A stretch of DNA of 62,925 nt, filler included, from Elsinoe ampelina (GCA_010093995.1; 7 parts of 5 records of this genome joined end to end with filler, not necessarily neighbours in it); one strand, 5' to 3'. Counted from the first letter of the whole stretch, positions 1 to 57,324 are shown. A program made the numbers and translations. The notes: a model not told the origin generated them from the sequence alone.

Positions 1-3000
1 TAGTTAAGTTTCTTACTTAGTTATTTCGTTTTAATGTTTTTACTAAGGAGGTAAACTTTCTCTCTCTCCTATAGAATTAGTCCTATAATTCTCTTCTAGT
101 TAGTAAACTCTACTATTCTTTGTAATATAAATGCTATATTATAGTATAGCTAGTTATATAGTTTCTTAATGTTAGCTACTAGTATATTAGTATCCTTAGA
201 TATTAGCTTAATTCTAAGTATGTCGTAGTATAGATCCGGGTGTATCCTATAGTTTACATAGAATAGTAAAATTCTATTTACTAACTTTCTATTATTAATA
301 GTAAGCTCTATAAGTAGTAATAGCGTTACCTATAAGTCTTGCTTATAGTTTAGGTAGTATTATAGGTACTACTCTAGTACTTAATTTGCCTGTTTAGTTT
401 GTCTGTCCGTTTATAGGTAAAAGGAGGTTAATAGCTTATATTTAACTCCTAGTAGGTCTATAAATAATTACTAGAATTGTAACGTAAATAGCTTATCTCT
501 ATTAGTTATAAAGTCTCGTAGTACTCTATGTTATAAAACAATTATTTAGAGGAAGGTAAAGGCTATATCCTCGGTAGTTACTATTGTCTTATATAGTATA
601 AAGTAGTAATACTTCGTAAACCTATCTACTAGAACTAGGATACTATTATACTTTACACCTATAAGAGGTTCTTCTAATAGTAGTAAAGGTCCTATAAAGT
701 CTATCGTAACTAATTGCTATAGTTTATCTAGTAGTAGTAAGAGTTATAATAGACTATATAGCTTATATTATAAGTGCTTAGACTTATAGCATATATCGTA
801 GGTAGTAATATATGTCTTAATATTGTTTCGGAGTTCTTTCTAGAGGTAGTTTTATGTAATAAGTTTAATAGTCTTATTAATCCTACTATATCCCGCTATT
901 AGGTTATTATACTATATTTAAATAACTTCTTTCTTCTGTTCTTACGTAAGCTCCTAGGTAAGGCTATATAACTGCTTTACCTTCGGGTACTTATAGACTA
1001 GAGCGTTATTCTACTACTTTAGTATAGAGGCCTCTATTATTATTATATTTTTTAAGTAATCTAGCTAGCGGCTAAGAGCGTCTACTCCGCTATTCTCTAA
1101 TCCCTTAATATAGTAGATCTAGAAGTTATAGCTTATAAGTGTTTCTAACTATCGAACCTATTATCTATTAAGAACCTTAGTTATTATCTAATATAGAAGG
1201 TTCTTATAGTTAGTATAGACTTATATAGGTAAGGTTATCCCTTCTAGGTATACTCTCTATTCGTAGAATGCCTCTATAATTGTAAGTAATTCCTTATTAT
1301 ATATGTTATAGTTAAGTTTAGGTCTAGTTATTTTTCGTAAGTAGTATATAATTAGGTAGTATTATTCTTCTACGTCCTTCTATACTAGATACGCTTCTAT
1401 TACAAAGTCTAAGGTATTTGTTTCTAGTAGTACTTATTAGTCTAGGTTAAAGAGTACTAGGATAGGTACTATTATAAGTCTAAGCTTTAGCTCCTTAAAG
1501 GCCTACCTATATCTCTTATTAAAGATAAAGCTAGTTTCCTTTTTCGTAAGGTTAGATATTAGCGTAGCTACCTTAGAGAATTCTTTAATAAACTTATAGT
1601 AGTAGTTAAAGAACTCTAGTAGCGCTTAAACCTTTTTAACTGTTGTAGATTCCGGCTAGTTATTTACTAACTTAATCTTCTTTAGATTAGGTCCGATACT
1701 ATTAGTAGATATAATATAGCTTAGAAATTATATCTTATACTTATAAAACTTACACTTAGAGAGTTTTACTAGTAGGTCTTTCTCTTTTAGTTTCTATAGC
1801 ACTTTATAAATATATCTTATATGTTTATTATACATCTTTAAGAAGATAATAATATTGTCTAAATATGCTAAGACAAAGTTGTTAAAGTATTCTTATAGAG
1901 TGTTATTAATTAACTCTTAGAAGGTTATAGAAGCGTTAGTTAACCTAAAGGGCATAATAAGGTACTTATATAGACTCTATTACATTCTAAAAGCTATCTT
2001 CTACTCCTTACTCTCCTTTATTTATACTTAATAATAGGCGTCTCTAATATTAATTAGGGTAAACTATTTAGCTCTAAGTAGTTAGTCTTAAAGTTTGTCG
2101 ATCCGTAGTAAGGGATAGTAATTCTTCCTAGTAAGTGTATTAAGTTTCTAGTAATTAATGTATATTTATAACGTTCTATCCTTTTTAGGTATAAAAAGCA
2201 CTTCGTGTATAATAGGTAATTTTAATAGTCATATAAATCCTTTAAGTAAGTACTTATCGATATAGTTCTTAAGGACGTTCTTCTCTTATTTTAATAGTAG
2301 TATAAGACCTTAATAGTATATTAGGGATTTACTCTCTTTAAAGAGTATTTTATAATTCTATAGTTTATATTAGAGTAAGGCTATAATGCTTTCTCTTTCT
2401 TTAAATAAGTTCTTAAAGTCTTTATATTCTAGCGGAAGTGCTTAATTACTTACGCTAGTAATAGCTCTAACTATTAGTCGTACCTATACTATCCTTATAG
2501 TTAGTATCTATAGAGCTAATTATACTTTCTATATCCTATAATTACACTTAGGAAATTTAAGTGTTTCTTTAATCTAGTCTACGTCTAGATTATGTTATTA
2601 AAGCTAGTCTATACTAAGTACTATATTATACTATATGTTAACTATATTAATTAATTGTTTTTCCATGTGTGTTCTAATTTAGATTATAATGTTTAATAGT
2701 TCCTAAGTAACTTTCCTATTCTTCCTTATAGGGGTTCTATCCGCTATAGTAAGTAGGTAAGGTAACTCCTTCTAATGTTAATAAGGTTTAAGCTAATTAG
2801 TAATTGTTATAGAGACGTAGCTATAGTTAGCTCCCGAATCTATTATTACTCTTACCTTATTTTCTTATATCTAGACTTCTAGTATAAAGTAATTTAATAT
2901 ATAGATCTTTATTATATTAAGGCTTTAGCTAGTATTATTATCTTACCTCCTTAGGCGATAACTAGCTAGTTTTTTATTATTATAGCGCCTTAGATAAGTA

Positions 3001-4831
3001 GTTAATCTCTTCCCGTATATATCTATTATTAGTACTATATCTACTAGGTAAGTTATGTTTTATTACTGTTTAATATAGCAAGGTAAACTTCTAGCGCCTA
3101 AGTCCCTTAGTAGCTATAAAGTCTAATAATTCTCTACTAGTTATACTAAGTAGTAGTATATACCTATATAGGTATAACTATTCCTTCCGGGTGTAGCTAG
3201 GTATTTACGTTAAAGACAAACGTAAGTTAAGTAGATTTATCTTATCGTGTTCTATTCTAGTAGTAGGTGTATATTATTATATAGTTTCTCTATATCTCTA
3301 TAAGGTATGCCTTAAGTTATCTACCTAGTAGTAGTATATTATTGTTGTTATTATTAGATAAGTCTTTATCTATATTATTATATTATAGTCTTTTAGTGTA
3401 TTCTTCGTTGTATTTCTCTTCGTCGCTACTACCCCTAGTATAGTTATAGTTAGTAAGGCTACACCGAGTATATTCTTGTACTTAGCTATAGGGAATAGTA
3501 CTATCTATTTCAATTACCGAGAAGTCTATAGTATATTTAAGACTAATAGCCTTTTCTTAAAGTACATTATATAAGTAGATAGTATAGTACTATTTATAAT
3601 CTAGATTTGTATATTTCTAGAGTAATATATAATATGCCTTTCCTTATAGTACGCTATAAGAGCTAAAGGTAAGGCTACTATGTTGTTATATAGTACTTAC
3701 GTCCTAATACTTTATCTTAATAATTGTATATTAGTAATTGTTACTAACTACCTTCTAAGGTTAGTTACTATTACTACTAATTATAGAGAGCTCTTCTAGG
3801 TCGAGTTCCTAGTCTAGCTATTTCGTTAGTTACCTACGCTTAGATAGCTTATATAGGAACTAACTAGATCTTTACTTGTCTAATAAGTAAATATAATAAG
3901 AGTTATTATAATATACTATCTATAATAGTGTTACGTATTAGCTTTATTATTTACTATTAGTCGTAGAGATATTAAGTATAACATCTAGAGAGGATTCTAC
4001 TACCTCTCGAGTTATTATAGACTTCTTCTATATTTCCTTGCCTATACTAAAGGTCGTTAGGTCTTTTATAGTAGTGTCGGCCTTTTTTTCTACTAGCCCG
4101 GTAACTATTATATATAATCTATCGGCTAGCGCCTCTTATTAGTAGTCCCTAGCCTAATACTTAGGTCTTTTATACTTAAAACATAGGTTATCTTGTCTAT
4201 ACTTCTCTCTTTCTTTTCTACTAAGGAACTTTCCTCTACGGCTATAGCCTTATACCTATAAGGGGCAGCCCTCGCGTATAGTATTAAGTTCTATAGGGTC
4301 TCTATAGTTTCGGGAGGAACATATATATCTAGTGTTTGCCTTATATCCTCTATAACGTTCTATATATCGTTTATAAAGTCTATTATTAATAGCAATTATA
4401 GTGTCTACTAGTTCCTAAAGACTATCGGGCGGCTTAGGTATTATTTAGTCTTTAACCGAGTCGCTTAGCCCTTAATAGAATACTAAGTGTTTAGTACTAT
4501 CGTCCTAGTCTAGGTACATTACGAGTTATTAGAACTAAGAATAGTACTAGGCTATAGACCTACGTTGTTGTAATTGTTAAATCTTCGTCGCGGCAATATA
4601 TTTCTTGTTAGATACGTTAAAGACTTACTTAATCTTTACCTAGAAGATGCTAAAGCTCTTAAAGATAGCCTTTATATCTAGGCCTAGTTATCTATCTAAG
4701 TAGCTACTTATATAAGGCTTAAACCACCCGAAGGTAGCGCCTTTAAGGTATATCCTAGTATAGAGGACCTTTACTATGTCGTTAGTGTACTTATCTCTCT
4801 CTAGGGCGAAGAAGGCTTTAAGTTAAATAAG

Positions 4832-5410
4832 TAATAGCCTCTATCTATCCCCTAGAGCATGTTAGTATTTAGTGTAATAACTAGTAAACCATTGGCCTTG
4901 TTACTAGTCCAATTAAGAAGCTTAACACACGCCTTCGCTATATTGATATCTATTATCACTGGCTAAGACAAGAGATTAATCTATCTAGCCCTATCTTAGT
5001 GACATAGACTCCCTTAGTAGATACCTTAGCTAATGGACTAATAAAGTCACTATCTCCTAGTAGATATAAGGCCTTCTTGCAACAGCTATCCCTCGAGTTA
5101 GTAGTCTACTAACTAGCTATAATAGACTTATAGCTATTTAGTGAAGGGGTGTGTCAACCTCGGCAAGAGCTATAGTGCTAAGAAGGACTCTGATTTAGTG
5201 CACCTAAGGTTAAACTAAGCACTTATCAACGGTTATACCAATTCATGAACAATTTAGACAGTTATTGTCTTATTCTGTTAAAGCTTAGAAGTTCTGTCAA
5301 TTTAGTTATCTCTTAGGTTATCAGGTTGAGTATTTATATAGTGAGAATCTACCTAATTTTGGTGGATTAGGCAGTAATAAATCTTCTCTTTCCCTATACA
5401 TAAGTTAATA
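4832..5410 (+). mobile_element. 5'-truncated Ty1/Copia fragment (RNase H end + PPT + 3' LTR) inside gag of Gypsy A3
   Basis: Absent from the homologous position in copies A1 and A2. Reads KLNTRLR(Y/H)IDI..HWLRQE...LANGL.KSL (Copia RNase H). PPT gaaggggtg at 5143-5151. LTR 5152-5410 with termini tgtcaac...gttaata (RIPed gttgaca). Left boundary approximate. Confidence 0.8.
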
Positions 5411-5644
5411 GTCGCCTTAAGTAGGCGTAGTCCCCGTAGAAGAGTTCTACTTCTAACTTAGGCTTACTTTGTCCTTTTATACTAAAAGACCTTCTATGTT
5501 TACCCGAGGTTAAACTAGTAGTAGATATGTCGTTAATAGTAAGCTTTCCTAGCTTACTAGCGATTAAAGATCCTAATAGTAACTTAGAGCGAGAGTTACT
5601 TATTAACCTTATAGCGTGCTATACTATAGCAAGGGTAGTTAAAA

Positions 5645-6107
5645 TGTTATAAACTGTCTAAACATAGCCTACGCTAGTAGTCTAAGCTAAGCTAAGAATA
5701 AGGGAGTTCTACTTCTATAGTAGTATAGTACTAAGGTAAGAGTCGGAGAAGGTATATCTTATAGATAATAAAGTACAATTAGATAGTATTATAAAGGCTA
5801 GCCTTAGTAATACTAGTGTTCGCTATCTAGACAAGGTTAACTATAGTACTTATATAAGGTAAGGACTACTCCTATATATATATATTCTTTACTATATACT
5901 CTATATACTCTATGTGCTTCGTAGCGAGAGTTAAGAGTAATATAGAGTATACGTTCGCTAGTAACCTACGTGCTCTATAGTCCTTAGGGTAGAGCCGCTA
6001 GAGAAGATAGAGAACTAAGTAAATATCGAGCTAGGTTACGTAATAACCTTAGTAGTTTAATTAGTCCTAACATCCCTGCGCTTTAGCTATCCTACTAGTT
6101 CGTAACA
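5645..6107 (-). repeat. 5' LTR of Gypsy A3 (463 bp)
   Basis: Same length and near identity to 10941-11403 and to the reverse complement of 14624-15086 and 21182-21644. Confidence 0.93.
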
Positions 6108-9100
6108 TAGGTATATTCTATAATTTATATAAAATAGTAAGATTCTATTTGCTAATTTTCTATTATTAATAGCAAGTTCCGCGAGCGATAGTAGTATTAC
6201 CTATAAGTCTTACTTATAGTTTAGGTAGTATCGTAGGTACTATTCTAGTACTTAATTTACTTATTTAGTTTATCTATCCGTTTACGAATAAAAGGAGATT
6301 AATAGCTTATATTTAACTCCTAGTAGATCTATAAATAATTACTAGAATTATAACGTAAATAGCTTATCTCTATTAGTTATTAGGTCTTATAGTACTCTAT
6401 ATTATAAAACAATTATTTAGAGAAAGACAAAGGCTATATCCTTAGCTATTACTATTATCTTATATAGTATAAAGTAGTAATACTTCGTAAATCTATCTAC
6501 TAGAACTAGAATGTATTATACTTTATACCTATAAGAGGCTCTTCTAATAGCGGTAAGAGTCCTATAAAGTCTATCGTAACTAATTACTATAGTTTATTAG
6601 GTAGTAGTAAGAGTTATAGTAGGCTATATAGCTTATATCGTAAGTGCTTAGACTTGTAGCATATATTATATGTAGTAATATATATCTTAATATCGTTTCG
6701 AAGTTCTTTCTAGAGGTAGTTTTATATAATAAGTTTAATAGTTTTATTAATCCTGCTATGTCCTACTATTAGGTTATTATAGTATATTTAAATAACTTCT
6801 TATTTCTATTCTTACGTAAGCTCCTAGGTAAGGCTATATAACTACTCTACCTTTAGGTGCTTATAGACTAGAGCGCTATTCTACTACTTTAGTATAGAGG
6901 CCTCTATTATCGTTATATTTTTTAAGTAATCTAGTTATTAGCTAAGAGTATCTACTCTACTATTCTCTAATCCCTTAACGTAGTAGATCTAGAAGTTATA
7001 ACTTATAAGTGTTTTTAACTATTAAACTTATTATCTATAAAGAACCTTAGTTATTATCTAATATAGAAGGTTCTTATAGTCGGTATAGACTTATATAGGT
7101 AAGGTTATTCCTTCTAGGTATACTCTCTATTTGCGGAATGCCTCTATAATTATAAGTAATTCCTTATTATATATATTATAGTTAAGTTTAGGTCTAGTTA
7201 TTTTTTGTAAGTAGTATATAATTAGGTAGTATTATTCTTCTATGTCCTTCTACGCTAGACACGCTTCTATTACAAAGTCTAAGGTATCTATTTCTAGTAG
7301 TGCTTATCGTTCTAGGTTAAAGAGTGCTAGAATAGGTACTATTATAAGCCTAAGCTTTAGCTTCTTAAAGGCCTACCTATATCTCTTATTAAAGACAAAA
7401 CTAGTCTCTTTCTTTATAAGGTTAGATATTAGCGTAGCTACTTTAGAGAATCTCTTAATAAACTTATAGTAGTAGTTAAAGAATTCTAGTAGTACTTAGA
7501 CCTTCTTAACTATAGTAGGTTCTAGCTAGTCGTTTACTAACTCGATCTTCTTTAAATTAGGTCTAATACTATTAGTAGATATAATATAGCTTAGAAATTA
7601 TATCTTATACTTATAGAACTTATACTTAGAGAGTTTTACTAGTAGGTCTTTCTCTTTTAGTTTCTATAGCACTTTACAAATATGTCCTATATATTTATTA
7701 TATATCTTTAAAAAGATAATAATATTATCTAAGTATACTAAGATAAAGTTATTAAGGTATTCTTATAGAGTATTATTTATTAACTCTTAGAAGGTTATAG
7801 AAGCGTTAGTTAATCTAAAGGGTATAACGAGGTACTTATATAAACTCTATTATATTCTAAAAGCTGTTTTTTACTCCTTACTCTCCTTTATTTATACTTA
7901 ATAATAGGTATCCCTAATATTAATTATAGTAAACTATTTAGCTCTAAGTAGTTAGTCTTAAAGTTTGTTAATTCTTAGTAGGGAATAGTAATTCTTTCTA
8001 GTAAGTATATTAAGTTTCTAGTAATTAATATATATTTATAACATTCTATTCTTTTTAGGTGTAAAAAGTACTCTATATATAATAGGTAATTTTAATAGTT
8101 ATATAAATCCTTTAAGTAAGTACTTATCGATATAGTTCTTAAGAATATTCTTTTTCTATTTTAATAGTAGTATAAGACCTTAATAGTGTATTAGGGATTT
8201 ACTCTCTTTAAAAGGTATTTTATAATTCTATAGTTTATATTAGAGTAAGGCTATAATATCTTTTCTTTCTTTAAATAAGTCCTTAAAGTCTTTATATTCT
8301 AGCGGAAGTACTTAATTACTTACGCTAGTAATAGCTCTAACTATTAGTCGTACCTATACTATCCTTATAGTTAGTATCTATAGAGCTAATTATACTCTCT
8401 ATATCCTATAATTACACTTAGGAAATTCGAGTGTTTCTTTAATCTAGTCTATGTCTAGATTATGTTATTAAAGCTAGTCTATACTAAGTACTATGTTATA
8501 CTATATATTAACTATATTAATTAATTGTTTTTCCGTGTGTGTTCTAATTTAGATTATAACGTTTAATAGTTCCTAAGTAACTTTCCTATTCTTCCTTATA
8601 AAGGTTCTATCCGCTATAGTAAGTAGGTAAGGTAACTTCTTCTAATATTAAGAAGGTTTAAGCTAATTAGTAACTATAGTAGAGACGTAGCTATAGTTAG
8701 CTCCCGAATCTATTATTACTCTTACCTTATTTCCTTATATCTAGACTTCTAGTATAAAGTAATTTAATATATAGATCTTTATTATATTAAGGCTTTAGCT
8801 AGTATTATTGTCTTACCTTATTAGGTAATAACTAGCTAGTTTTTTATTATTATAGCCCCTTAGATAAGTAGCTAATCCCTTCCTATATATATCTACTATT
8901 AGTACTATATCTATTAGGCAAGTCGTGTCTCGTTATTGTTTAATATAGTAAGGTATACTTCTAGTACTTACGTTCCTTAATAACTATAAAGTCTAATAAT
9001 TCTCTACTAGTTATACTAAGTAGTGTCGTATACCTATATTAGTATAACTATTCCTTCTAGGTATAGCTAGGTATTAGTATTAAAGACAAAAGCAAGTTAT

Positions 9101-11403
9101 ATAGATTTATCTTGTTATATCCTATTCTAGTAGTAGGTATATATTATTATATAATTCCTCTATATCCCTATAAGGTATACTTTAAGTTATCTACCTAGTA
9201 GTAGTATATTATTGTTGTTGTTATTAAATAAGTTCTTATCTATGTTATTATATTATAGTTATTTAGTGTATCTTTTACTATATTTCTCTTCGTCGCTACT
9301 ACTTCTAGCATAGTTATAGTTAGTAAAGCTATACTAAGTATACTCTTATACTTAGCTATAGAGAATAGTACTACCTATCTCGATTACTAAGAAGTCTATA
9401 GTGTATTTAAGACTAATAGTATCTTCTCTAAGTACATTATATAAGTAGATAGTATAGTACTATTTATAATCTAGACTTATATATTTCTAGAGCGACATAT
9501 AATATGCCTTTTCTTATAGTTCGCTATAAAGGCTAAAAGTAAGACTACTATATTGTTATATAGTACTTACGTCCTAATACTTTGTCTTAATAATTGTATA
9601 TTAGTAATTGTCGCTAACTACCCTCTAAAGTTAGTTACTATTACTACTAATTATAGGGAGCTCTTCTAGGTTAGGTTTCTAGTCTAGCTATTTCGTTAGT
9701 TACCTATACTTAGATAGCTTATATAGGAACTAACTAGATCTCTACTTATCTAATAAGTAAATATAACAAGAGTTATTATAATATACTATCTATAATAGTA
9801 TTATATATTAGCTTTATTGTTTACTATTGGTTATAGAGATATTAAGTATAATATCTAGAGAGAATTCTCTTACCTCTTAAGTTGTTATAGACTCCTTCTA
9901 TGTTTCCTTACCTACGCTAAAGGTCGTTAGGTCTTCTATAGTAGTATTAGCCTTTTTCTCTACTAGCCTAGTAACTATTATATATAATCTATTAGCTAGT
10001 ATCCCTTATTAGTAGTCTCTAGCCTAATACCTAGGTCTTTTATACTTAAAATATAAGTTGTCTTATCTATACTTCTCTCTTTCTTTTCTACTAAGGAACT
10101 TTCCTCTATAGCTTTAGTCTTATACCTATAAGAGGCAACCTTTGTATATAGCGTTAAGTTCTATAGGGTCTCTATAGTTTCAAGAGGAATATATATATCT
10201 AGTGTTTACCTTATATCCTCTATAACGTTCTATATGTCGTTTATAAAGTCTATTATTAATAGTAATTATAGTGTCTACTAATTCCTAAAGGCTATTAGGT
10301 AGCTTAAGTATTATCTAGTCTTTAACTAAGTTACTTAGCCCTTAGTAGAACACTAAGTATTTAGCGCTATTATTCTAGTCTAGGTATATTATAAGTTATT
10401 AGAACTAGAAATAGTACTAGGCTATAGACCTACGTTGTTATAGTTATTAGATCTTCGTTGTAGCGACGCGCTTCTTATTAGATACGTTAAAGACTTGCTT
10501 AATCTTTGCCTAAAAGATATTAAAGCTCTTAAAGATAGCCTTTATATCTAGGCTTAGTAATCTATCTAGGTAGCTACTTATATAAGGCTCGAACTACCCG
10601 AAGGTAGCGCCTTTAAGGTATATCCCGGTATAGAGGACCTTTACTATATTATTAGCGTACTTATCTCCTTCTAGAGTAAAGAAGGCTTTAAGTTAAATAA
10701 GAAAGCGCCTTAAGTAAGCGTAGTTCCCGTAGAAGAGTTCTACTTCTAACTTAGGCTTGCTCTATTCTTTCTCTATACTAAGAGACCTTCTATATTTACC
10801 TAAGGTTAAACTAGTAGTAGATATATTATTAATAGTAAGCTTTCCTAGTTTACTAGCGATTAAAGATGCTAATAGTAACTTAGAGTAAGAGTTACTTATT
10901 AACCTTATAGCGTGCTATACTATAGTAAAGGTAGTTAAAATATTATAAACTATCTAAATATAGCCTACGCTAGTAGTCTAAGCTAAGCTAAGAATAAGGT
11001 AGTTTTACTTCTATAGTAGTATAGTACTAAGGTAAGAGTTAGAGAAGGTATATCTTATAGATAATAAAGTATAATTAGATAGTATTATAAAGGCTAGCCT
11101 TAGTAATACTAGTGTTTACTATCTAGATAAGGTTAACTATAGTACTTATATAAGGTAAGGACTATCCCTATATATATATATTCTTTATTATAGTCTCTAT
11201 ATACTCTATATACTCTATAGCGAGAGTCGAGGGCAATATAGAGTATACATCCGCTAGTAACCTATACGCTCTATAGTTTTAGAGGTAGAGCCGCTAGAGA
11301 AGATAGAGAACCGGGTAAATATCGAGCTAGGTTACGTAATAATCTCGGCAGCTTAATTGGTCCTAACGTCCCTACGTTCTAGCTGTCCTACTAGTTCGTA
11401 ATA
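6108..11403 (-). mobile_element. Gypsy family A, copy A2 (gag to integrase), interrupted in integrase by same-family copy A3
   Basis: 6108-10940 repeats ~237-5644 apart from the Copia insert. 5' LTR at 10941-11403 abuts Copia family C sequence. Confidence 0.92.
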
Positions 11404-11654
11404 GTCGCCTAATCTTTATAGACTATATTCTTATTAAATGTTATATAGGGTAATATAATAATCTTTCCCTTCTAGGCTTACTAAGTATAATACTAATAGA
11501 GTATCTAGATAAGGTAATTAGTTATTAAGTTATTCTATATACTAATATACTAACTAAGTAGTACTCTAGCTTAGAATTTATATAATTTAGAAATATATTA
11601 GTTATAGATATAAACTCTATAGCTAAAGCGTCTAATATAAGTTAATAAGACTAG
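11404..11654 (-). mobile_element. Copia family C internal fragment (post-integrase region), host of Gypsy A2 and Gypsy B insertions
   Basis: Matches uninterrupted Copia C sequence at ~26434-26684 and ~54999-55249; continues at 25364. Confidence 0.88.
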
Positions 11655-12255
11655 TATTAAAGCCTTATATTAAAGCTACATATGTCGTAATATAGAGAAC
11701 GCCTATCTAACCGAATAGTCCGTTAGTAGTAGAACTAATTACTATTAAGTTTAAGGCATAAGTACTACGTAAGATAAGTAGGTACGTTACGTAAGTAAGA
11801 CTAGCCGCTACTAAGTGCCGCTCTAATACTAGGCCCTTATAATTGTCTTCTCCTCTAAGAGAGCTATCCTTAGCTCTCGACTAGAAGTGTATAACGTATA
11901 GCGCCTTCTAGAGGTAATATAGGCTTAAGGTAGTTAAGGCATTTATACAAAAACCTAGTATATATCTCGTATACTATTTAGTAATAGTAATCCTAGGGAT
12001 CTAGTTCCTATAGAGGCGTTTATCTAGTTGCTATAGCGCTAAAGCTAATTAGTAGCGACAATATTACTTTTCTTAGAATTTCTAGTAGTATTATAGGAGA
12101 TATACGCCTTACGCTAGTAGCTATAACAAAGATATAGTACACTAGAGGTTAGTCTATATAACTTTATTATTCCTTCTTATATTCTTCTTTTCTACCTAAA
12201 ATATATCTATATTTTATTAACTCTTTACTATATAAGCGTACTACCTATAACTATT

Positions 12256-13051
12256 ATATTATTTAACTCTAGCTCTCCTATAGCTAATACTTATAGCGTA
12301 AGGTCTACTAGCGCCTAGGGAGCTATTACTACTAGCGCTAACTCTACGACTCTCTTACTTCCTGAAGAGAAGGCTAATACCTATACTAGGTACGCTAATA
12401 GCGTTGCCGAGGGTAAGCTAATAGTGCTCTTATAAGGGACATAACTAATTTATAGTAGGTCGTATCTATACTAGAGGTAACTTTAGTATCTTCTTCTATC
12501 GTAAGTATAAACACTACGCCTATAGTAAGTATATATATAAGCTACTTCTATCTATCCTACGTAATATATATATTAACGCCTTTAATGTAGTTACTAAGCT
12601 TAAGGCCTCTAACTAGGCTAGTATTACTATAGCTAAGAAGTATATATACGCTATAGCCTATAAGAATATTCCTAAGGTTAAGAAGTTTAAGACTATACTT
12701 AAGGTATACTATACTAATAAGAATAAGATCGTTAGCGAGGTCTCGACTCCTTATATAGGGCCCGTAGGTAGCTCGCTTAGTAGTGTTACGCTTAAGTATA
12801 AGAAGGTTAAGAAGCTATAGAAGATTAGGCGTAGCCTTTATAGCTTAATTACTATTAGTAAGGAGGTAAGTTAGACTATACTCTATATACGTTATAAACA
12901 TAGCTAATAGGTTTAGATAGTATATAACTCTAGTAGTTCTACTACTAAAATCAATTATATTATAGCTACTAGATAGCTTATAGCCCCTATAGTACTTATA
13001 GGGGAGAATCTTAGTATAGAGGTAAACGAGGAGAATAGTAAGAATAAGTAG
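12256..13051 (+). pseudogene. RIP-mutated two-intron gene antisense to Gypsy B; inferred six-Cys zinc-cluster-like protein with helical middle and acidic tail
   Basis: Introns 12413-12455 (GTAAGC..CTAAT..TAG) and 12866-12916 (GTAAGT..GCTAAT..TAG) join one frame. TAT/TAC codons spaced C-x2-C-x10-C-x12-C-x2-C-x6-C if read as RIPed TGT/TGC. Ends ~GEDLGVEADEEDGEDE* (de-RIPed). Start approximate. Confidence 0.6.
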
Positions 13052-14623
13052 GCGTATATAAGCTAGGTGTATATCTCTAGCGCTATACCTATAATAAGGC
13101 CTTACGTAGAGTATAATAGAGTATAGAGTTTAGGTTAATACCTATAATAGTAGCGTAAGTATAGTGCTTTATTAAAATGTATTTCCCTAGGTAAGGAGTC
13201 TACTCTTTGCCCTATTTATATGTTTATATAATCTGTCTACTTATATGCTCTATAATCTATATCTTTAGCAACCTTTCTTAGCTACTCTTAGCTATAACTC
13301 GTATATAGCGATTAGCTCTCTCGTATTTATATAATTCTCTTTAGGTTCCTAGCTATTAAACTTAATAGGCTAGTCCTTCTACTTTACTAAGTAGAATACC
13401 TTACTCTTTATAGTTCTCCTATCTAGGATTTTCTCTACTATCTACTTATCTACTTTATTAGTAAGAGATATACTCTCTTCTAGCTCCTTACTAGCTCTAT
13501 CTATCTATAGTTTAAGAAGAGATATATAAAAGACATTATAGATACAATACTAACTCGGTAAAGCTAGGTAATACACCTATAATCTAATTGTGTTAAGTAT
13601 ATAAAATAGGCTAAGGAATTATAGTTCTATCTTCTTCTTTAGTATAGGTAGCTATAAGTTCTTAGCCGAGAGTAGTACTAAGTTACCTATACTATATACT
13701 CTTAGTATATACTTCCTATTATAGTACTTAGCCTAGTAGGTAGAAGTCTCTTTCTATTGCTCTACTAGCTTTATATATGTATCTCGTAAGTGTTATACTA
13801 ACTCTACTACTACTAGTACTCTTCTCTCTAAAGTCTTGTCCTAAGACTTAATAGCTATTACCTCTAACTCTAGATAGTAGCTATATATTATTTAGAAGAG
13901 GCTTATACGTAGCGTAGTATAAATGCTATTATTGCTTATAAATTCTACTTATAATAGATATTCGGCCTAGTTGTTCTATAGCTCTATATAGTAGCACCTT
14001 AGGTACTATTCTAACGTCTAGTTTTGCTACTTAGTTTAACTATCTATCTATAGGTAAAAGGCTATACTAAGTCTACGCTTTATATACGTTTCGTAACAGA
14101 ATTTACTCTAGAACTAGCTAGTAAAGACCGATTCTTAATTACTTACTATCCCCCTTAGGACACTATAATAGCAAATAATATAGTTACGTAGGATCTCTAC
14201 TAGCTCTATAGACGTATACTTCTTAGTAGTAGAGACATATAGTAATATCTTAGTATAATAGTCTATAATTACTAGTACTATATTATAGACGCTACTACCT
14301 TACTTACTTAGTAGTAGGTTAGTAATAAAATCTATTATAATTTCTTACTATAGGTAGTCTAGTATTAGTAGTACACGTAGCTCGCTATAGAGGCAATAGT
14401 AGCGCGCCTTATATTTCTAGTATACTTAGTATAACTATACGTAGTTATTAATGTCTTTCCTTATAGTTATCTAGAAGTACTTCTACGAGAGAAGTTTAAG
14501 TGTCTTATTCTTACTAAAGTAACTAGCCTATTTACTATTATAGTATATACGACGCCTTAAGTGTACTATTATTCGGAATAACTAGTAATTCTTTATAGAA
14601 GAGAAGATTATCTTATATATTCT

Positions 14624-17600
14624 TATTATAAACTAGTAGGATAGCTAAAGTGTAGAGACGTTAGAACTAATTAAACTACTAAGGTTATTACGTAACTCGG
14701 TCTAACGTTTACCTAGTTCTCTATTTTCTCTAGTAGCTCTACCTCTAAAACTATAAAGCGTATAGGTTACTAGTAGATATATACTCTATACTACTCCCGA
14801 CTCTCGCTATAGAGTATATAGAGTATATAGAGAATGTAATAAAGAATATATATATATAGGAATAGTCTTTACCTTATATAAGTACTATAGTTAACCTCGT
14901 CTAGATAATAAATACTAGTATTACTAAGGCTAGCCTTTATAATACTATCTAATTATACTTTATTATCTATAAGATATACCTTCTCTAACTCTTACCTTAG
15001 TACTATACTACTATAGAAGTAGAACTACCTCGTTCTTAGCTTAGCTTAGACTACTAGTATAAGCTATATTTAGATAGTTCGTAACATTTTAACTACCCTT
15101 ACTATAGTATAGTACGCTATAAGGTTAATAAGTAACTCTTGCTCTAAGTTACTATTAGTATCTTTAATTACTAGTAAGCTAGAAAAGCTTACTATTAATA
15201 ATATATCTATTACTAGTTTAACCTCGGGTAAATATAGAAGGTCTCTTAGTATAGAAAAAGAATAGAGTAAGCCTAAGCTAGAAGTAGAACTCTTCTATAG
15301 GGACTACGCTTACTTAAGGCACTTCCTTATTTAACTTAAAGCCTTCTTTACCCTAGAAGGAGATAAGTACGCTAACGACGTAGTAAAGGTCCTCTATACT
15401 AGGATATACCTTAAAGGCGCTACCTTCGAGTAGTTTAAGCCTTATATAAGTAGCTACCTAGATAGATAACTAGGCCTAAATATAAAGGCTATCTTTATGA
15501 GCTTTAGCATCTTCTAGGCAAAGATTAAGTAAGTCTTTAATATATCTAATAAGGAATATATTACTACGATAAAGATCTAATAACTATAATAATATAGGTC
15601 TATAGCCTAGTACTATTCCTAGTTCTAATAACTTATAATATACCTAGACTAGAATAATAGTGCTAAACATTTAGTATTCTACTAAGGACTAAGCGACTTA
15701 GTTAAAGACTAAATAATACCTAAGCTACCTAATAGCCTCTAGAAGCTAGTAGATACTATAATTACTATTAATAATAGACTTTATAAACGACATATAGAGC
15801 GTCGTAGAGGATATAAGGTAAATACTAGATATATGTGTTCCTTCTAGAACTATAGAGACCCTATAGAACTTAACGCTATATACGAAGGTTACCTCTTATA
15901 GGTATAAGGCTAAGGCTATAGAGGAAAGTTCCTTAGTAGAAAAGTAAGAGAGAAGTATAGATAAGATAATCTATATTTTAAGTATAAAAGACCTAGGTAT
16001 TAAGCTAGGGACTACTAATAAGAGGCGCTAGCTAATAGATTATATATAATAGTTACTAGGCTAGTAGAGAAAAAGGCTAATACTACTATAGAAGACCTAA
16101 CAACCTTTAGTATAGGTAAGGAAATATAGAAGAAGTCTATAACAACTTAAGAGGTAAGAGAATCCTCTCTAGATATTATACTTAATATCTCTATAACTAA
16201 TAGTAAATAATAAAGCTAATACGCGACGCTATTATAGATAGTATATTATAATAACTCTTGTTATATTTACTTATTAGATAAGTAGAGATCTAGTTAGTTC
16301 CTACATAAGCTATCTAAGTATAGGTAACTAACGAAATAGCTAGACTAGGAACCTAACCTAGAAGAGCTCTCTATAATTAGTAGTAATAGTAACTAACTTT
16401 AGAGGGTAGTTAGCAACAATTACTAATATACAATTATTAAGACAAAGTATTAGGACGTAAGTACTATATAATAATATAGTAGTCTTACTTTTAGCCCTTA
16501 TAGCGAACTATAAGAAAAGGCATATTATATGTCGCTCTAGAAATATACAAGTCTAGATTATAAATAGTACTATACTATCTACTTATATAATGTACTTAGA
16601 GAAGATACTATTAGTCTTAAATACACTATAGACTTCTTAGTAATCGAAATAGGTAGTACTATCCCTTATAGCTAAGTAAGAGAATATACTTAGTATAGCC
16701 TTACTAATTATAACTATACTAGAGGTAGTAGCGATAAAGAGAAATATAACAAAGAATACACTAAACAACTATAATATAATAACATAGATAAAGACTTATT
16801 TAACAATAACAACAACAATATACTACTACTAGGTAGGCGACTTAAAGTATACCTTATAGAGATATAGAGGAATTATATAATAATATATACCTACTACTAG
16901 AATAGGACATAATAAGACAAATCTATATAACTTACTTTTATCTTTAATACTAATACCTAGCTATACCTAGAGGGAATAGTTATACTAATATAGGTATACG
17001 ACACTACTTAGTATAACTAGTAGAGAATTATTAGACTTTATAGTTACTAAGGAACTTAAGCGCTAGAAGTTTACCTTATTATATTAAATAGCGATAAAAC
17101 ACAACTTACCTAATAGATATAGTACTAATAATAGATACGTATAGAAAGGGATTAGCTACTTATCTAAGGAGCTATAATAACAAAAAACTAGCTAGTTATT
17201 ACCTAATAAGGTAAGACAATAATACTAGCTAAAGCCTTAATATAATAAAGATCTATATATTAAATTACTTTATACTAGAAGTCTAGATATAAGGAAATAA
17301 GGTAAGAGTAATAATAGATTTAGGAGCTAACTATAGCTACGTCTCTATAATAATTGCTAATTAGCTTAAACCTTATTAATATTAGAAGGAGTTACCTTAC
17401 CTACTTACTATAGTAGATAGAACTCTTATAGGGAAGAATAGGAAAGTTACTTAGGAACTATAAAATATTATAGTTTAAATTGAAACATATATAGAAAAAT
17501 AATTAATCGATATAGTTAATATATAGTATAATATAGTACTTAGTATAAACTAGCTTTAATAATATAATCTAGACATAGACTAGATTAAAGAAATATTTAA

Positions 17601-20600
17601 ATTCTCTAAGTATAATTATAGGACATAGGAAGTATAATTAGCTCTATAGATACTAACTATAAGAATAGTATAGGTACGACTAATAGTTAGGGCTATTACT
17701 AGCGTAAGTAATTAAGTACTTCCGCTAGAATATAAAGACTTTAAGGACTTATTTAAAGAAAGAGAAGATATTATAGCCTTACCCTAATATAGACTATAGA
17801 ATTACAAAATACCTTTTAAAGAGGGTAAATCCCTAATATACTATTAAGGTCTTATACTACTATTAAAATAAGAGGAGAATATTCTTAAGAACTATATTGA
17901 TAAGTACTTACTTAAAGGATTTATATAACTATTAAAATTACCTATTATATATAGAGTACTTTTTATACTTAGAAAGGATAGAATATTATAAATATATATT
18001 AATTACTAGAAACTTAATATACTTACTAGGAAGAATTACTATCCTCTACTAAGGATTAATAAACTTTAAGACTAACTACTTAGAGCTAAATAGTTTACTA
18101 TAATCGATATTAAGGACGCTTATTATTAAGTATAAATAAAGGAGAGTAAGAAGTAGAAAACGGCTTTTAGAATATAATAGAGTTTATATAAGTACCTCGT
18201 TATACTCTTTAGGTTAACTAACGCTCCTATAACCTTCTAAGAGTTAATTAATAATACTCTATAAGAATACCTTAATAACTTTATCTTAGTATATTTAGAT
18301 AATATTATTATCTTCTTAAAGATATATAACAAATATATAGGATATATTTATAAAGTACTATAGAAACTAAAAGAGAAAGACTTACTAGTAAAACTCTCTA
18401 AGTATAAGTTCTATAAGTATAAGATACAATTTCTAAGCTATATTATATCTACTAATAGTATTAGACTCGATCTAAAGAAGATTAAGTTAGTAAATAACTA
18501 GCTAGAACCTATAATAGTTAAGGAGGTTTAAGCGCTACTAAAGTTCTTTAACTACTACTATAAGTTTATTAAGAGATTCTCTAAGGTAGCTACGCTAATA
18601 TCTAACCTTACGAAAAAGGAAACTAGCTTTATCTTTAACAAAAAATATAGGTAGGCCTTTAAGGAGCTAAAGCTTAGGCTTATAATAGTACCTATCCTAG
18701 TACTCTTTAACCTAGACTAATAAGTACTACTAGAAATAGATGCCTTAGACTTTATAATAGAAGTATATCTAGTATAGAAGGACGTAGAAGAATAATACTA
18801 CCTAATTATATACTACTTACGAAAAATAACTAGACCTAAACTTAACTATAATATATATAATAAAGAATTACTTACAATTATAGAAGTATTCCGTAAGTAG
18901 AGAGTATACCTAGAAGAAATAACCTTACCTATATAAGTCTATACTAACTATAAGAACCTTCTATATTAGACAATAACTAAGGTTCTTAATAGATAATAGG
19001 TCTAATAGTTAGAAACACTTATAAGCTATAACTTCTAGATCTACTATATTAAGGAATTAGAAAACAAAGAAGTAGACGCTCTTAGCTACTAGCTAGATTA
19101 CTTAAAAAATATAACAATAATAGAGGCCTCTATACTAAAGTAGTAGAATAGCGCTCTAGTCTATAAGTACCCGAAGGTAAAGTAGTTATATAGCCTTACC
19201 TAGGAGCTTACGTAAGAATAGAAAAAAGAAGTTATTTAAATATACTATAATAACCTAATAGTAGAACATAGTAGGATCGATAAGACTATTAAACTTATTA
19301 TATAAAACTACCTCTAGAAAGAACTCTAAAATAATATTAAGACATATATTACTATAAATAATATATACTATAAGTCTAAATACTCTTAATATAAACTATA
19401 TAGTATACTATAACCCTTACTACTACTAGATAAACTATAGTAATTGGTTATAATAGACTTTATAGGACCTCTACTACTATTAGAAGAACCTCTTATAGGT
19501 ATAAAGTATAATAGTATTCTAGTTCTAGTAGATAGGTTTATAAAGTATTACTACTTTATACTATATAAGATAATAGTAACTACTAAGGATATAGCCTTTA
19601 CCTTTCTCTAAATAATTGTTTTATAATATAGAGTACTACGAGACCTAATAACTAATAGGGATAAGCTATTTACGTTACAATTCTAGTAATTATTTATAGA
19701 CCTACTAGGAGTTAAATATAAGCTATTAATCTTCTTTTATCTATAAACGGACAAATAGACTAAATAGGTAAATTAAGTACTAGAGTAGTACCTATAATAC
19801 TACCTAAACTATAAGTAAGACTTATAAGTAATACTATTACTACTCGTAGAGCTTGCTATTAATAATAAAAAATTAGTAAATAGAATTTTACTATTCTATG
19901 TAAACTATAGAATATACCTAGATCTATACTATAATATACTTAGAATTAAACTAATATCTAAGGATGCTAATATACTAGTAGCTAACATTAAGAAACTATA
20001 TAACTAGCTATACTACGATATAGCGTTTATATTATAGAGAATAGTAAGCTTTACTAACTAAAAGAGAATTATAGGACTAATTCTATAGGAGAAAGAGAAA
20101 GTTTACCTCCTTAGTAAAAATATTAAAACGAAATAACTAAGTAAGAAACTTAACTACACTAAACTAGGACCCTTTAAGATCCTAGAAAAGAAAAACAAAA
20201 ACGTATATAAACTAGAACTACCTAGATATATAAGAATCTACCTAGTCTTTTATATATTACTATTAGAGAAAGCACTATAGGACGTAGTACCTAGACCTAT
20301 TAAACTAGATAAAGAAACATAGGAGCTATAGTATAAGATTAAAAGGGTTTTATGTTATAAATCTATAAGGGAAAAGCGTTACTATCTTATCTACTAGAAA
20401 GAATATTAGTATAGTAAGGTAATATAGGAACTAGAGAAACACCTTACCTCGTAAGTAATTCTAGATTACTAAACTAAAAACCTATCCTAAGTAAACCGAC
20501 TAGGTAGGCTAGACGCTACTAATACTAAATAAAAACAAGAATGCCTAAGGAAGACTACTTAGCTAATAGAAGTACTCTAATCGTTACTAAATAGAGAACC

Positions 20601-21644
20601 CTAATCGGAGTTAGGCATAAATAATTACTAATTCTATAGTAGGACAGGATCTACTAATAATAGTATTTCCTCTTACTCTAGAACTTAAATATAGGTCTCC
20701 TCTAGAGAAATTACTTTCTCTACCTTATTCTCTAATTTCTATATCTCTTCGCATAGGTAAAGCTTATCGCCTATAACTCTTTAATAAGCCTCTTTTGCCT
20801 TTTTATAAGCTTCTTTAGCTTCCTTTCTAGTAGCCTTAGCTATAACTAATTCCTTTTATAAACAAATATACTTAGACTAGAGACGCTACTATTTCAATTT
20901 TATTACCTAAATATTATAACCTAAGTAGTTACTTACAACATACTAGCTATAAATACCCGACTAAATATAGACTTTATAGTCTAGCTCTTTTAACTTATAA
21001 CAAGAGTAAGCTTATAGTATACTAGTTCTAAATAGTTTAATAAACTCTAAGAGGTTCTTTCGTATAAATATACTAGATTTACTATGCCTTTAACGACTAG
21101 GAGGTATATTTAGTATATAGCGTAAGAAGATAAGGAAGAATACTTACTTATTAGAATAACTCGATTAAAGGAGAAAAGTAATGTTACGAACTAGTAGGAT
21201 AGCTAGAGTATAGAGATGTTAGGACTAATTAAACTACTAAGGTTATTATATAACCTAGCTCGACATTTACTTAGTTCTCTATCTTCTTTAGTAGCTCTAC
21301 CTCTAAAACTATAGAGTACGTAGGTTACTAGCGGATGTATACTCTATACTACTTCTAACTCTTGCTATGGAGTATATAGAGTATATAAAGAACGTAATAG
21401 AGAACACATATATATAGGAATAGTCCTTACCTTATATAAGTACTATAGTTAACCTCGTCTAGATAGTAAATACTAGTATTACTAAGGCTAGCCTTTATAA
21501 TACTATCTAATTATACTTTATTATCTATAAGATATACCTTCTCTAACTCTTACCTTAGTGCTATACTACTATAGAAGTAGAACTATCTCGTTCTTAGCTT
21601 AGTTTAGACTACTAGCGTAGGCTATGTTTAGATAGTTTATAATA
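14624..21644 (+). mobile_element. Gypsy/chromovirus LTR retrotransposon, family A, complete copy A1 (7021 bp), RIP-inactivated
   Basis: 463-bp LTRs at 14624-15086 and 21182-21644. TSD attct (14619-14623) / gttct (21645-21649). PPT aaaggagaaaag before the 3' LTR. Zn knuckle ~15973-16015, RT VYLD(N/D)II ~18290, RNase H LE.DA.DF ~18730, integrase ~19250-19950, chromodomain ~20330-20470. Confidence 0.95.
20559..21107 (-). pseudogene. RIP-mutated ORF antisense to Gypsy A1; inferred Zn2Cys6-like domain followed by a coiled coil
   Basis: De-RIPed reading MPPSRQ..RKNLLEFI..FG...QACSxCELKELDCKVHIRSGICGQCVxSNxSGCDIRVT..EWQRL...KEAEEAHEKAKEA.. gives C-x2-C-x6-C-x8-C-x2-C-x7-C. Boundaries approximate. 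Confidence 0.62.
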
Positions 21645-24600
21645 GTTCTATAGCGCTCTACTCTTGTCTCTACTACTCTCTACTTGTAAATATAGCTTTA
21701 TAATCTCGAGGTCTTATTCTTATAGTAGCTCTACTACTAATATTAGGTTAGTAGATAGATCTTTAAAGAGATCCTCTCTCGTAGTTACTATAAGTACAAC
21801 TCGCTAGGTCGTTATAAGCCCCTAGGAGTTCTTAGAAGAGAAGTCGCTACTATATAGCGTATAGGCAGCCTAGGCCTATTCTAGGGCAGCCTCGTATATA
21901 GTGTAGATATGTCTAATAAGCGAGGTAGCTTCCTTAACATCGGTAGTTTAGTCCTATATACGAAGCTTATTCTAAAGGGTAGAAAGGAGATATAATACCT
22001 CTTACTCTTCTACTACGTAGTTAGAGTGCCTCGAGGGTATATTAGCTAGGTTCCTTATACCTAGCTAATACTCTATTATAAAGTTAAAAGTAGTAAGGAA
22101 GGTAGCCTAGTAAGCTTATTAGCTATTTAGCTATTTTAGCTTTATAAATCCTTAAAGATTATTATAGTTAGTAAGTACTTAAATTATATACGAGGCACCT
22201 TCGAGATAGTATTACTATTACTTAAATATATATACGATCGCTAATAGCTCTTAGTTATATATCTTATAATTGTACTTAGCTAAGATAAACTTTCTTAACT
22301 AAAAGGTAATTAGGTACTAAGTACTATCGAATAGCTAGGATAGAATCGCCGCTACTATAAACTTTAATATATTACTCTTAATATATAGAGGTAGTATAGG
22401 ATCGTAGTAACGAAGGATAGAGACATACGTAAAGGTGTCTCTAATGTTCTTAAATGTCTACTATTTACTTATGCCCTATATAAAAGAGCTATACTTACGA
22501 CCTTTAACTAAGCCTTTAAGAAGGCTAGAGAGGAGAGTAATAATCTTAGAGTAGTGCTATACGAAGCAATAATAGAAGTTTATAAAGCTAGTAAACTACT
22601 AGACCTTATAATAACTCTTTAGCCTCGGCTAATTCTTAATTATAGTTACTCTACTAGGATCTATTAAGACGCCTACGGTAGAGATAATATAGCTAAGGAA
22701 TTTTACCTCCTTAGTAAAGAATTTACATTTCTTAAGGTTAGTATATAAAGTAAACTTCCATAGCCTCGCTAGAATCTTATAAATATAACATATATAGTTC
22801 TCCCTTAAATTGCTATAGATAAGAATATTATTAAGGTAGACAATATAGATAGTATTAACTAGCTTACCTAGCGCCTTATTAATATACGCTTAGAAGGTAG
22901 CTAGAGCGTTAGTTAATCTAAAAGGCATAACTAAGTACTTAAAATAGCTATAGTATATACGGAATATAGTCTTCTACTTGTTACTACGCTTAATAGGGAT
23001 CCTATAGTAGGCATCCTTTAGATTTAACTTCGAAAACTACTAGGCTTACCTAAGCTAATTAAGTGTCTTACTAATAAGTAGAAGCGAGTAGTAATTCTTA
23101 ATAGTTATCTTATTTAAGCCCCGATAATCTATATATAAGTATAGACTACTATCTTTCTTAGGCACGAATAGAATAGAAGTACCTACCTTACTTATAGAGT
23201 GCCTAATTTACCTATTTAATTAAGTAGTCTCGAGATAGTCCTTAAGTACTTTAAGCTCCTTAACTAAAAGATTATATAAGGGCTAGAATAGAGGCCTTCT
23301 ACCTAGCTCTAGCTTAATTATATACTTGGTGCCTAGTAGGCGTAGTAGATTTGTAATATTCTTATAGACAAAGATGTCGAAGAACTCTATAAACTCTAAT
23401 AGTAGAGCTAGGTCGCCTACGGTGTAAGTATAGTCCTTAGATAGAGTCTATACTATAGTATATACCCTCGGCTCGTTCTTAAGGTCCTTTATAAAGTCTT
23501 CTAGTTTATATAAGCGAACTATATATAAGAAGTAGCTATATAACTAGTTATCTATAGCGCTATCTATAATTATATACTATCTTCTCTACTATAGGTACTC
23601 TAAAATGACTAGAGAGCCTAGTTCTAAGTCTATAGCGTAGAAGAGGCCGATTGTCTCCCTAAGGTCGCTATAGAAGTCTACTAGACATATGCGAAGCTAG
23701 TACACGCCGTAGTAAAATCCGGCTTACTCTATAAAGGAGAAGATACTTAGATACTAAGTATACTTAACTCTTAGCAGATCGTAACGAAGGGTAAATGCCT
23801 AAGACATAAGATTAACTTCTATATAATTGTCTATAAGGAACATATAGTCTTTATGCCTTATAGGTGCTATAATAGCGCTATAATAGAGTAGCAATAGATA
23901 AGCGTTAATTAGAAGGGAAGAAGGGCTTAGTTATACTCTTTAGCTAAGCCCTTAGAGTTTCCTAACTTAGAGTTATTAGACTTATCTATAGTAGTAACCT
24001 TATATACTACCTAAGACTTACTATTCTTCTATAGGTACTTCGACCTATACTCCGGCTTAATATAACTAGTTTTGCTATAACTATAGTACTTAGCGTCTCT
24101 CTTCTACTTGTCGGAGGAACCTCTCTAACTACTAAACTATTTAATAGGTAGGTTAGTAGCTTTACGCTTATAGCAAGCTTAAGAGCTACTACTAGACTAG
24201 TAGTAGTATCCTTCTTAGGGGCTACTATAACTACTATACTTACGTAGGTAGTTACTTTTATCTTCTCGTATAGCGCGCTTACTACTAGTATAGTCTATAG
24301 ACTCGATATATAAGCCTAAAGAGACTAACTTCTAGCGCGTAGCTAGAATAGTATAGTATTTAATAATAGTAGTACGTAGTATAGGCTATAGCTTAGTAAG
24401 GAGATAGTATACCCTCTACTCTTTAGAGTAGAAAGCTAGTTACTCCTTAAGGGTAGTAAGTTCCGAGGTAAAGGCCTAGATAGATTAGCCCTTACGTTGT
24501 TAGGCTCTCTTATATACGAGAGTTACGCGTACCTTACAATTAATAGGGTCGTTAACTACGTCCTATATAAACTAGCGGAATTGCTTCTATATATAGTCTT

Positions 24601-25901: not shown

Positions 25902-25913
25902 TTAATTAATTAA
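25902..25913. other. Artificial contig-join linker TTAATTAATTAA inside a 100-nt N spacer (also at 55880-55891, 57269-57280, 58630-58641, 60250-60261, 61867-61878)
   Basis: Identical 12-mer centred in six equal-length N blocks; gives stop codons in all six frames. Confidence 0.95.
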
Positions 25914-55835: not shown

Positions 55836-55935
55836 NNNNNNNNNNNNNNNNNNNNNNNNNNNNNNNNNNNNNNNNNNNNTTAATTAATTAANNNNNNNNN
55901 NNNNNNNNNNNNNNNNNNNNNNNNNNNNNNNNNNN

Positions 55936-57224: not shown

Positions 57225-57324
57225 NNNNNNNNNNNNNNNNNNNNNNNNNNNNNNNNNNNNNNNNNNNNTTAATTAATTAANNNNNNNNNNNNNNNNNNNN
57301 NNNNNNNNNNNNNNNNNNNNNNNN

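Follow-up and report, generated by a model that had tools for sequence, protein, structure and literature searches.

Positions 12256–13051 on the plus strand of a retrotransposon-rich stretch of the Elsinoe ampelina genome probably hold the relic of an intron-bearing antisense accessory open reading frame, carried by a chromovirus, killed by RIP, and arranged like the brtn gene of the Boty element. The window, which is the whole stretch of DNA that was analysed, comprises 62,925 nucleotides (seven parts of five records joined end to end with filler). The stretch of interest displays a coding-type periodicity whose boundaries coincide with those of the proposed exons, carries two sets of splice signals, occupies a defined position within a complete element, and is present in high copy number. 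That one of its two strands once coded for protein is highly likely. The copy itself is dead: it starts with ATA, is interrupted by four in-frame TAG codons, and has nearly reached saturation in C-to-T and G-to-A changes. It has no likely effect on the host.

An earlier note on this DNA had proposed a two-intron gene of the zinc-cluster type, embedded antisense in a Gypsy element. Much of that interpretation stands, namely the ancestral coding stretch of about 800 nucleotides, the exon and intron boundaries, the location inside a Gypsy element, and, probably, the antisense orientation. The zinc-cluster identity is not supported.

The carrier element and its setting

The window contains AT-rich blocks at 1–30 kb and 51–63 kb with a GC content of 0.15–0.40, and a block between them at about 0.52–0.57. 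The AT-rich DNA bears the signature of RIP, with TpA/ApT of 1.8–2.9 and (CpA+TpG)/(ApC+GpT) of 0.06–0.18. Runs of N, 1736 in total, are found at 25858–25901, 25914–25957, 26734–27444, 55836–55879, and 55892–55935; the very low GC of the profile at 26–28 kb is largely an effect of the run of 711 N.

The carrier, termed family B, is a minus-strand chromovirus spanning 11655–25363. Its own length is 6685 bp once the nested guest is subtracted, a second Gypsy element that splits it in two. Its features are the following.

11650–11654, no strand: left copy of the target-site duplication (TSD) ACTAG; the same five bases stand at 25364–25368
11655–11841, minus strand: 3′ LTR of family B, 187 bp, with TA(TG)...CA ends, aligning with 25177–25363
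11846–11856, minus strand: polypurine tract AGAGGAGAAGA, read from the sequence
13230–14623, minus strand: 3′ part of family B pol, with integrase, SH3-like domain, and chromodomain (Pfam)
14624–21647 (approximate ends), plus strand: family A Gypsy nested within family B (self-comparison)
21648–25176, minus strand: 5′ part of family B, with gag region, protease, reverse transcriptase, and RNase H (Pfam, and 54% identity to P0001, described below)
25177–25363, minus strand: 5′ LTR of family B, aligning with the 3′ LTR
25364–25368, no strand: right copy of the TSD ACTAG, matching the left copy

The two 187-bp LTRs were paired by self-comparison of the window, and each is bordered by the 5-bp ACTAG. 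Three other copies of the surrounding host repeat have the site empty and uninterrupted, reading ...AAGACTAG/CCTATT.... The LTR pair, the duplication, and the empty-site copies together identify 11655–25363 as one chromovirus insertion. The polypurine tract lies 4 nt inward of the 3′ LTR.

Pfam domains are distributed on both sides of the nested guest. In the minus-strand stretch 14650–13297, Chromo passes its cut-off (E = 7.7e-6), and SH3_Tf2-1 (8.1e-6) and Integrase_H2C2 (0.0011) are both under Pfam's cut-offs. Past the guest, in the minus-strand stretch 23162–22000, RVT_1 (1.8e-16) and RT_RNaseH_2 (4.3e-12) pass theirs. Reverse transcriptase, RNase H, integrase, and a C-terminal chromodomain are thus found on one strand between LTRs with a TSD, as in a chromovirus. 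The reverse transcriptase–RNase H portion is 54% identical, despite RIP, to P0001, a 1198-residue polyprotein of Elsinoe fawcettii with all these domains; the other named matches to family B pol come from Venturia and a Dothideomycete. The end of pol lies between 13294, where the first stop occurs, and about 13230, as estimated from the length of P0001. Given this end and the bounds set by LTR, TSD, and polypurine tract, 12256–13051 falls within a tail of 1.4 kb that separates pol from the polypurine tract. The location in a Gypsy element described by the earlier note is thereby borne out, and the proposed gene probably reads from the strand opposite to pol.

The guest belongs to a second family, A, of which self-comparison finds three copies, at 1–11403 on the minus strand and at about 14624–21647 on the plus strand, with 11404–14623 in between. 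The portion at 1–11403 is a head-to-tail array composed of an internal part, an LTR at 5413–6105, a further internal part, and an LTR at 10706–11401. The middle LTR is common to both units, as expected from unequal recombination between elements.

The pol gene of family B also offers a calibration of what RIP does to codons, by alignment of its RIP-altered parts (13297–14650 and 21651–23279) with the intact relative. The 101 tyrosine positions of RIP type correspond to Tyr (32), His (29), Arg (16), Cys (10), and Phe (7) in the relative, and the 75 stops to Gln (30), Trp (20), and Arg (12). Eleven isoleucine positions align with Met, and a single Met is left over 1027 aligned positions. The empirical translation that results reads Ile as derived from Ile, Val, Ala, Thr, or Met; Lys from Lys or Glu; Asn from Asp or Asn; Leu from Leu or Pro; Ser from Ser, Gly, or Pro; Tyr from Tyr, His, Arg, or Cys; and stops from Gln, Trp, or Arg.

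Exon structure in the phase of TpA

The gene model consists of three exons and two short introns, preceded by a region of the element tail.

11842–12255, plus strand: upstream region of the antisense gene, where its promoter would lie (TpA counts by phase 25, 32, and 24, no bias; segmentation state N)
12256–12412, plus strand: exon 1, with an ATA start that may be an ATG altered by RIP, rich in Ser and Thr, one TAG, ending ...TYTRYANSVAE (TpA 4, 5, and 20, p = 0.00025)
12413–12458, plus strand: intron 1, 43 or 46 nt, GTAAGC...CTAAT...TAG (phase switch at 12431–12433)
12459–12865, plus strand: exon 2, with a start dense in Tyr codons, a middle rich in Lys, Ile, and Ser, and two TAG (TpA 18, 15, and 56, p = 2e-8)
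12866–12916, plus strand: intron 2, 51 nt, GTAAGT...GCTAAT...TTTAG (four in-frame stops; TpA flat at 6, 3, and 4)
12917–13051, plus strand: exon 3, a tail that was probably acidic before RIP, with the final TAG at 13049–13051 (TpA 4, 9, and 18; periodicity stops at 13045)

The dinucleotide TpA is the end product of RIP, and its distribution over the three codon phases is strongly uneven here. Taken together in the proposed frame, the three exons have 26, 29, and 94 TpA in the three phases (chi-square p = 1e-13), so that 63% of them have T at codon position 3 and A at position 1 of the next codon. The counts are even in the introns (3, 4, and 3; 6, 3, and 4) and in the flanks (25, 32, and 24; 17, 16, and 16). 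In a scan of 7 kb, 12246–13051 on the plus strand is the sole strongly periodic part.

A four-state Viterbi segmentation of 9000–16000, blind to the gene model, returned just two periodic segments, 12246–12431 and 12433–13045, the first in phase with exon 1 and the second with exons 2 and 3. The start of the gene, a frame switch within intron 1, and an end at the TAG of 13049–13051 are thus regained without knowledge of the model. The pol gene of family B is aperiodic by the same segmentation, and the periodicity of the antisense stretch is far stronger. As a positive control, the signal marks the Copia reverse transcriptase at 52667–54721 on the minus strand (RVT_2, 1.8e-20). A bias equal to that of the gene is reached in about the top 1% of windows of 405 nt, at least one other of which, around 53000, lies in this Pfam-confirmed Copia reverse transcriptase. 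Tandem repeats were considered as a source of the periodicity and ruled out, as a search of the exons found none.

Other parts of the window are periodic as well. The control belongs to a RIP-altered Ty1/Copia element at 51494–54721 on the minus strand, in which 51494–52666 contains several phase switches that may be frameshifts or introns. Further strongly periodic stretches, probably once coding, are found at 25371–26157, 55252–56387, 56934–57907, and 58712–59711. They belong to a repeat, family C, that is the insertion target of family B.

The splice signals fit the periodicity. Intron 1 begins at the donor G|GTAAGC at 12413, and TAG acceptors end at 12455 or 12458. Both resulting lengths leave a remainder of one on division by three, which matches the needed change of frame, and intron 2 is a multiple of three, so the phase is kept. 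Motifs of the form GTAAGY...CTAAY...YAG number 20 in 82.85 kb of strand; two of them lie inside these 0.8 kb (Poisson p about 0.016) and are the sole such motifs in 11000–14700. The introns described by the earlier note, each with donor, CTAAT branch, and TAG acceptor, are therefore present where it had placed them, and its three exons can be joined in one frame, with boundaries backed by the TpA phase.

Joined, the exons make up a frame of 233 or 234 codons, interrupted by four stops and closed by a fifth. All five stops are TAG, compared with a TAG share of 0.50 among the stop triplets of the block. In exon 2, two of 139 codons are stops, whereas the median for all frames of the AT-rich block is 15 per 140, in keeping with the remark in the earlier note that few stops remain despite heavy RIP. 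The true pol frames, also altered by RIP, have 10.1–11.9 stops per 140 codons, four to five times more than the gene frame. This scarcity is odd, being unusual for an ordinary protein.

Strand, copies, and rival explanations

The periodicity establishes where a reading frame lay more readily than on which strand. Periodicity of the RNY type is self-complementary, so it does not tell the strand. On the minus strand, the mirror frame is no less open: it has four stops in 243 codons and continues across both putative introns. The assignment to the plus strand therefore depends mainly on the splice signals. A model of sense versus mirror codons, trained on RIP-altered Gypsy pol, favours the plus strand in each exon, with a sum of +20.5 nats. 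The same model trained on Copia yields just +0.5 nats in total. Test accuracy in windows of 137 codons was 0.39–0.97, and the codon-model call is weak. AT and GC skew over 12650–13100 leans weakly to the plus strand. A gene with introns can persist in a retroelement only when it runs antisense to the genomic RNA, which makes the model of an intron-bearing antisense gene coherent. The strand of the gene is inferred, as are its expression and function, which are taken up below.

Copies elsewhere bear on the history of the stretch. Within the window, neither blastn nor purine/pyrimidine diagonals found a second copy. Two runs of one organism contain a fraction of 0.53–0.54 of the sampled words, and a run of a second organism contains 0.05. 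Contigs were aligned at 80% likeness, 1604 from the source organism (X1) and 237 from the second organism (X3), and cover all 30 bins. Two presumed RNA runs, X4 and X7, contributed no contig, which says nothing about expression. Summed contig depth, which is no copy count, is of a similar order over the two regions compared, 13,500–25,400 over 12004–13263 and 12,400–36,000 over pol. The gene stretch is present in many copies in the source organism and also occurs in X3, with pieces at 12294–12402. For the contigs of the two organisms, no indel is listed from 11527 to 13214, so the frame switch belongs to the family and is no private frameshift. In the source organism, two single contigs join across 12935–13074 (138 nt) and 12944–13061 (116 nt), which indicates that some copies are without most of exon 3.

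Nearly all differences between copies are transitions (X1, 191 of 199 places; X3, 135 of 147). Mutation is lighter in the X3 copies, with 43 A>G and 62 T>C against 15 C>T and 15 G>A. Copies in X3 have CGCG where the window has TATA or TACG. The loose ends of X3 contigs at 12100, 12799, and 12873 likewise contain CGCGCGC and CTCGAG at places that read TATA or CTTAAG in the window. The CG-rich words in X3 suggest that many TpA here arose from CpG mutated on both strands and not from CpA or TpG alone.

Homology searches returned no relative of the product. Pfam found no family at E ≤ 0.1 in six frames of 11900–13300, a weak negative for a RIP-altered query. A word-indexed search of proteins of 76–244 residues with exon 2 of the plus strand yielded 44 candidates, none at E ≤ 10, and one of proteins of 134–427 residues with the minus-strand frame yielded 756 candidates, again none at E ≤ 10. 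Peptide patterns run against metagenomes hit 385 stretches, none of which was confirmed, and a RIP-tolerant, purine/pyrimidine-coded pattern of 12734–12780 had no match there. A scan of IMG/VR with the pol alignment recovered 23 loci, most of them not close. The best, L001, is 46% identical to P0001 and has no clear antisense open reading frame downstream of pol; it is too distant from family B to weigh against the finding. L001 (1–7117, filed as viral) is a GC-rich, intact-looking chromovirus with gag at 1185–2462 and pol at 2342–6190, assembled as a unit of 6994 nt with a terminal overlap of 123 nt.

Three other accounts of the stretch can be weighed against an antisense accessory gene. It would be quite unlikely, on these data, for the coding strand to be the minus strand, with a third sense open reading frame or a C-terminal extension of pol after the chromodomain and the plus frame as its mirror. 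The TpA periodicity suits that frame equally well, its openness has been noted above, and the only two stop-to-stop frames of at least 80 residues within 5000–22000 are both on the minus strand, at 12557–12814 and 12845–13129. This open frame is moreover the frame of pol (13129 = 14650 − 3 × 507). However, nine minus-strand stops occur in the 56 codons from the chromodomain to 13130, and 21 aligned relatives stop about 20–30 residues past the chromodomain without an extension. The phase switch at 12431–12433 and the aperiodic 12866–12916 have no canonical pair of minus-strand splice sites of the needed lengths. The minus-strand translation is rich in Leu, Ile, and Tyr and resembles the shadow of a gene rich in Lys and Glu, a reading of exon 1 on that strand would put G in second position in 40% of codons (the complement of C at 0.40 of plus-strand second positions), and the translated frame found no homolog among its 756 candidates.

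A real and spliced gene on the plus strand might also be part of a host gene that some copies of family B have picked up, a passenger with no role in the element. A periodicity far above that of the element's aperiodic pol suggests a different, host-like codon usage, the depth over the gene stretch is somewhat below that of pol, and two single contigs have deletions in exon 3. Such a capture is nonetheless unlikely: exon 2 found no host protein match in the word-indexed search, the Copia pol of the window is equally periodic, which means that the trait is not peculiar to host genes, the stretch also occurs in a second organism, and a complete unit from start to stop fits neatly into the interval that separates the polypurine tract from pol. 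Very unlikely, finally, is the absence of any gene, in which a non-coding tail would yield open mirror frames and intron-like words by chance of composition. GTAAGT, CTAAT, and TAG are easy words in RIP-altered DNA, the searches found no homolog for either strand, and the frame is oddly stop-poor. Against this stand the size of the phase bias, its sharp ends at the start and stop of the model with a switch at intron 1, the flat flanks within the same element tail, the rarity of an equal bias among windows of 405 nt, at least one other of which is truly coding Copia reverse transcriptase, and exons without tandem repeats.

The predicted product and comparable genes

The stretch is best described as what RIP has left of a gene of about 230 codons, with three exons and two introns. 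It would lie tail-to-tail with pol and on the opposite strand, inside the 1.4 kb that follow pol and precede the polypurine tract and 3′ LTR. Transcription may have started from a promoter of its own in 11842–12255 or from antisense activity of the LTR. Being antisense to the genomic RNA of the element, the introns would not be spliced from that RNA and would survive each round of retrotransposition. The product is predicted to have been a small protein that starts with a Ser/Thr-rich part, continues with a short segment once dense in codons for Cys, His, Arg, or Tyr and with a charged middle, and ends in an acidic tail. The analogy with brtn and the plant antisense open reading frames weakly suggests that it assisted or regulated the element, probably in the nucleus.

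The earlier note had assigned the segment dense in Tyr codons to a zinc cluster, with six Cys codons converted by RIP and placed by their spacing. Six Tyr codons do stand at those places, two at 12382–12384 and 12391–12393 and four within 12467–12541 in exon 2, but they are picked from nine Tyr in 39 residues. None of these sites is among the 40 of 266 differences between copies that are listed. The zinc-cluster profile PF00172 requires six Cys, and all six positions here are Tyr codons. The consensus of Zn2Cys6 proteins is C-x2-C-x6-C-x5-12-C-x2-C-x6-8-C; the spacing here, if Tyr is read as Cys, is C-x2-C-x9/10-C...C-x2-C-x6-C. The paired x2 spacings of possible former Cys and a possibly acidic tail make a loose likeness to the fungal family, whereas the stretch has no Cys, no profile match, and a first half that is spaced differently.

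A Zn2Cys6-type transcription factor with an acidic activation tail is therefore a most improbable product. The density of Tyr codons, nine in 39 residues compared with about ten in the following 100, suggests that the segment was once rich in Cys, His, Arg, or Tyr, and the tail appears acidic before RIP in that Asn and Lys positions of pol align mostly with Asp/Asn and Lys/Glu. On the other hand, neither PF00172 nor any other Pfam family matches, and the first half has x9–10 in place of x6. Cys is the least likely of the four main origins of a RIP-type Tyr in the pol calibration (10 of 101, against Tyr 32, His 29, and Arg 16). The occurrence of CGCG in X3 where the window has TATA or TACG makes CGY, an Arg codon, a real alternative source, and Tyr codons derived from Arg or His would amount to a basic patch and not a metal site. 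The segment was probably rich in a mixture of Cys, His, Arg, and Tyr, and it could have formed a metal site or equally a basic patch.

Antisense genes in this position are known from other elements. The brtn gene was reportedly first described by Zhao in 2011 (Virology 417:248). Boty-like chromoviruses of Botrytis and Sclerotinia carry brtn, an antisense gene between pol and the 3′ LTR (PMC7264820, PMC8365987, PMC4227169). The likeness of the present stretch to brtn is one of position and, probably, orientation: both have a fungal host, a Ty3/Gypsy carrier with a chromodomain, a site between pol and 3′ LTR, and no known domain, and the present stretch is probably antisense as brtn is. The two differ in that the closest pol relative here comes from Elsinoe, a Dothideomycete, and Botrytis is a Leotiomycete, and that the evidence here is all drawn from a RIP-dead copy.

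In plants, Ty3/Gypsy elements carry antisense open reading frames of the class aORF-3R, which the review PMC7264820 exemplifies by GENE23 of Grande, RIRE2, ORF4 of Retand, and ORF2 of PvRetro13. They are described there as antisense, located in the interval between pol and 3′ LTR, with a promoter of their own proposed, some products nuclear, and no function assigned. The frame at 12256–13051 has the same position, between the end of pol (about 13230–13294) and the 3′ LTR, and probably the same orientation. The plant elements belong to another kingdom and, according to the same review, are mostly not chromoviruses and have long 3′ internal regions. The likeness is one of arrangement. In the literature searched, no fungal antisense accessory gene was found beyond Boty of Botrytis and Sclerotinia.

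A broader generalization goes further than the relic itself. A family of Dothideomycete-type chromoviruses may carry an antisense gene with introns whose product is a small nuclear regulator, metal-binding or basic and acidic in its tail. The gene would be kept in at least two species, with a codon structure unlike that of pol, and either homologous to brtn or convergent with it. This is improbable as it stands. Were the regulator reading true, the element would exemplify a retrotransposon-borne accessory gene resembling a transcription factor, and antisense accessory genes would be recurrent in fungal Gypsy elements.

The approach has a use of its own, as the phase of TpA regains exon and intron structure where RIP is too heavy for any homology search. 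If the antisense gene is real, it would be a second independent fungal case, with introns, and such genes would not be an oddity of Botrytis. It would also provide a comparative handle on the function of antisense accessory genes and alert annotators to the possibility of a gene in the supposedly “non-coding” tail of a Gypsy element.
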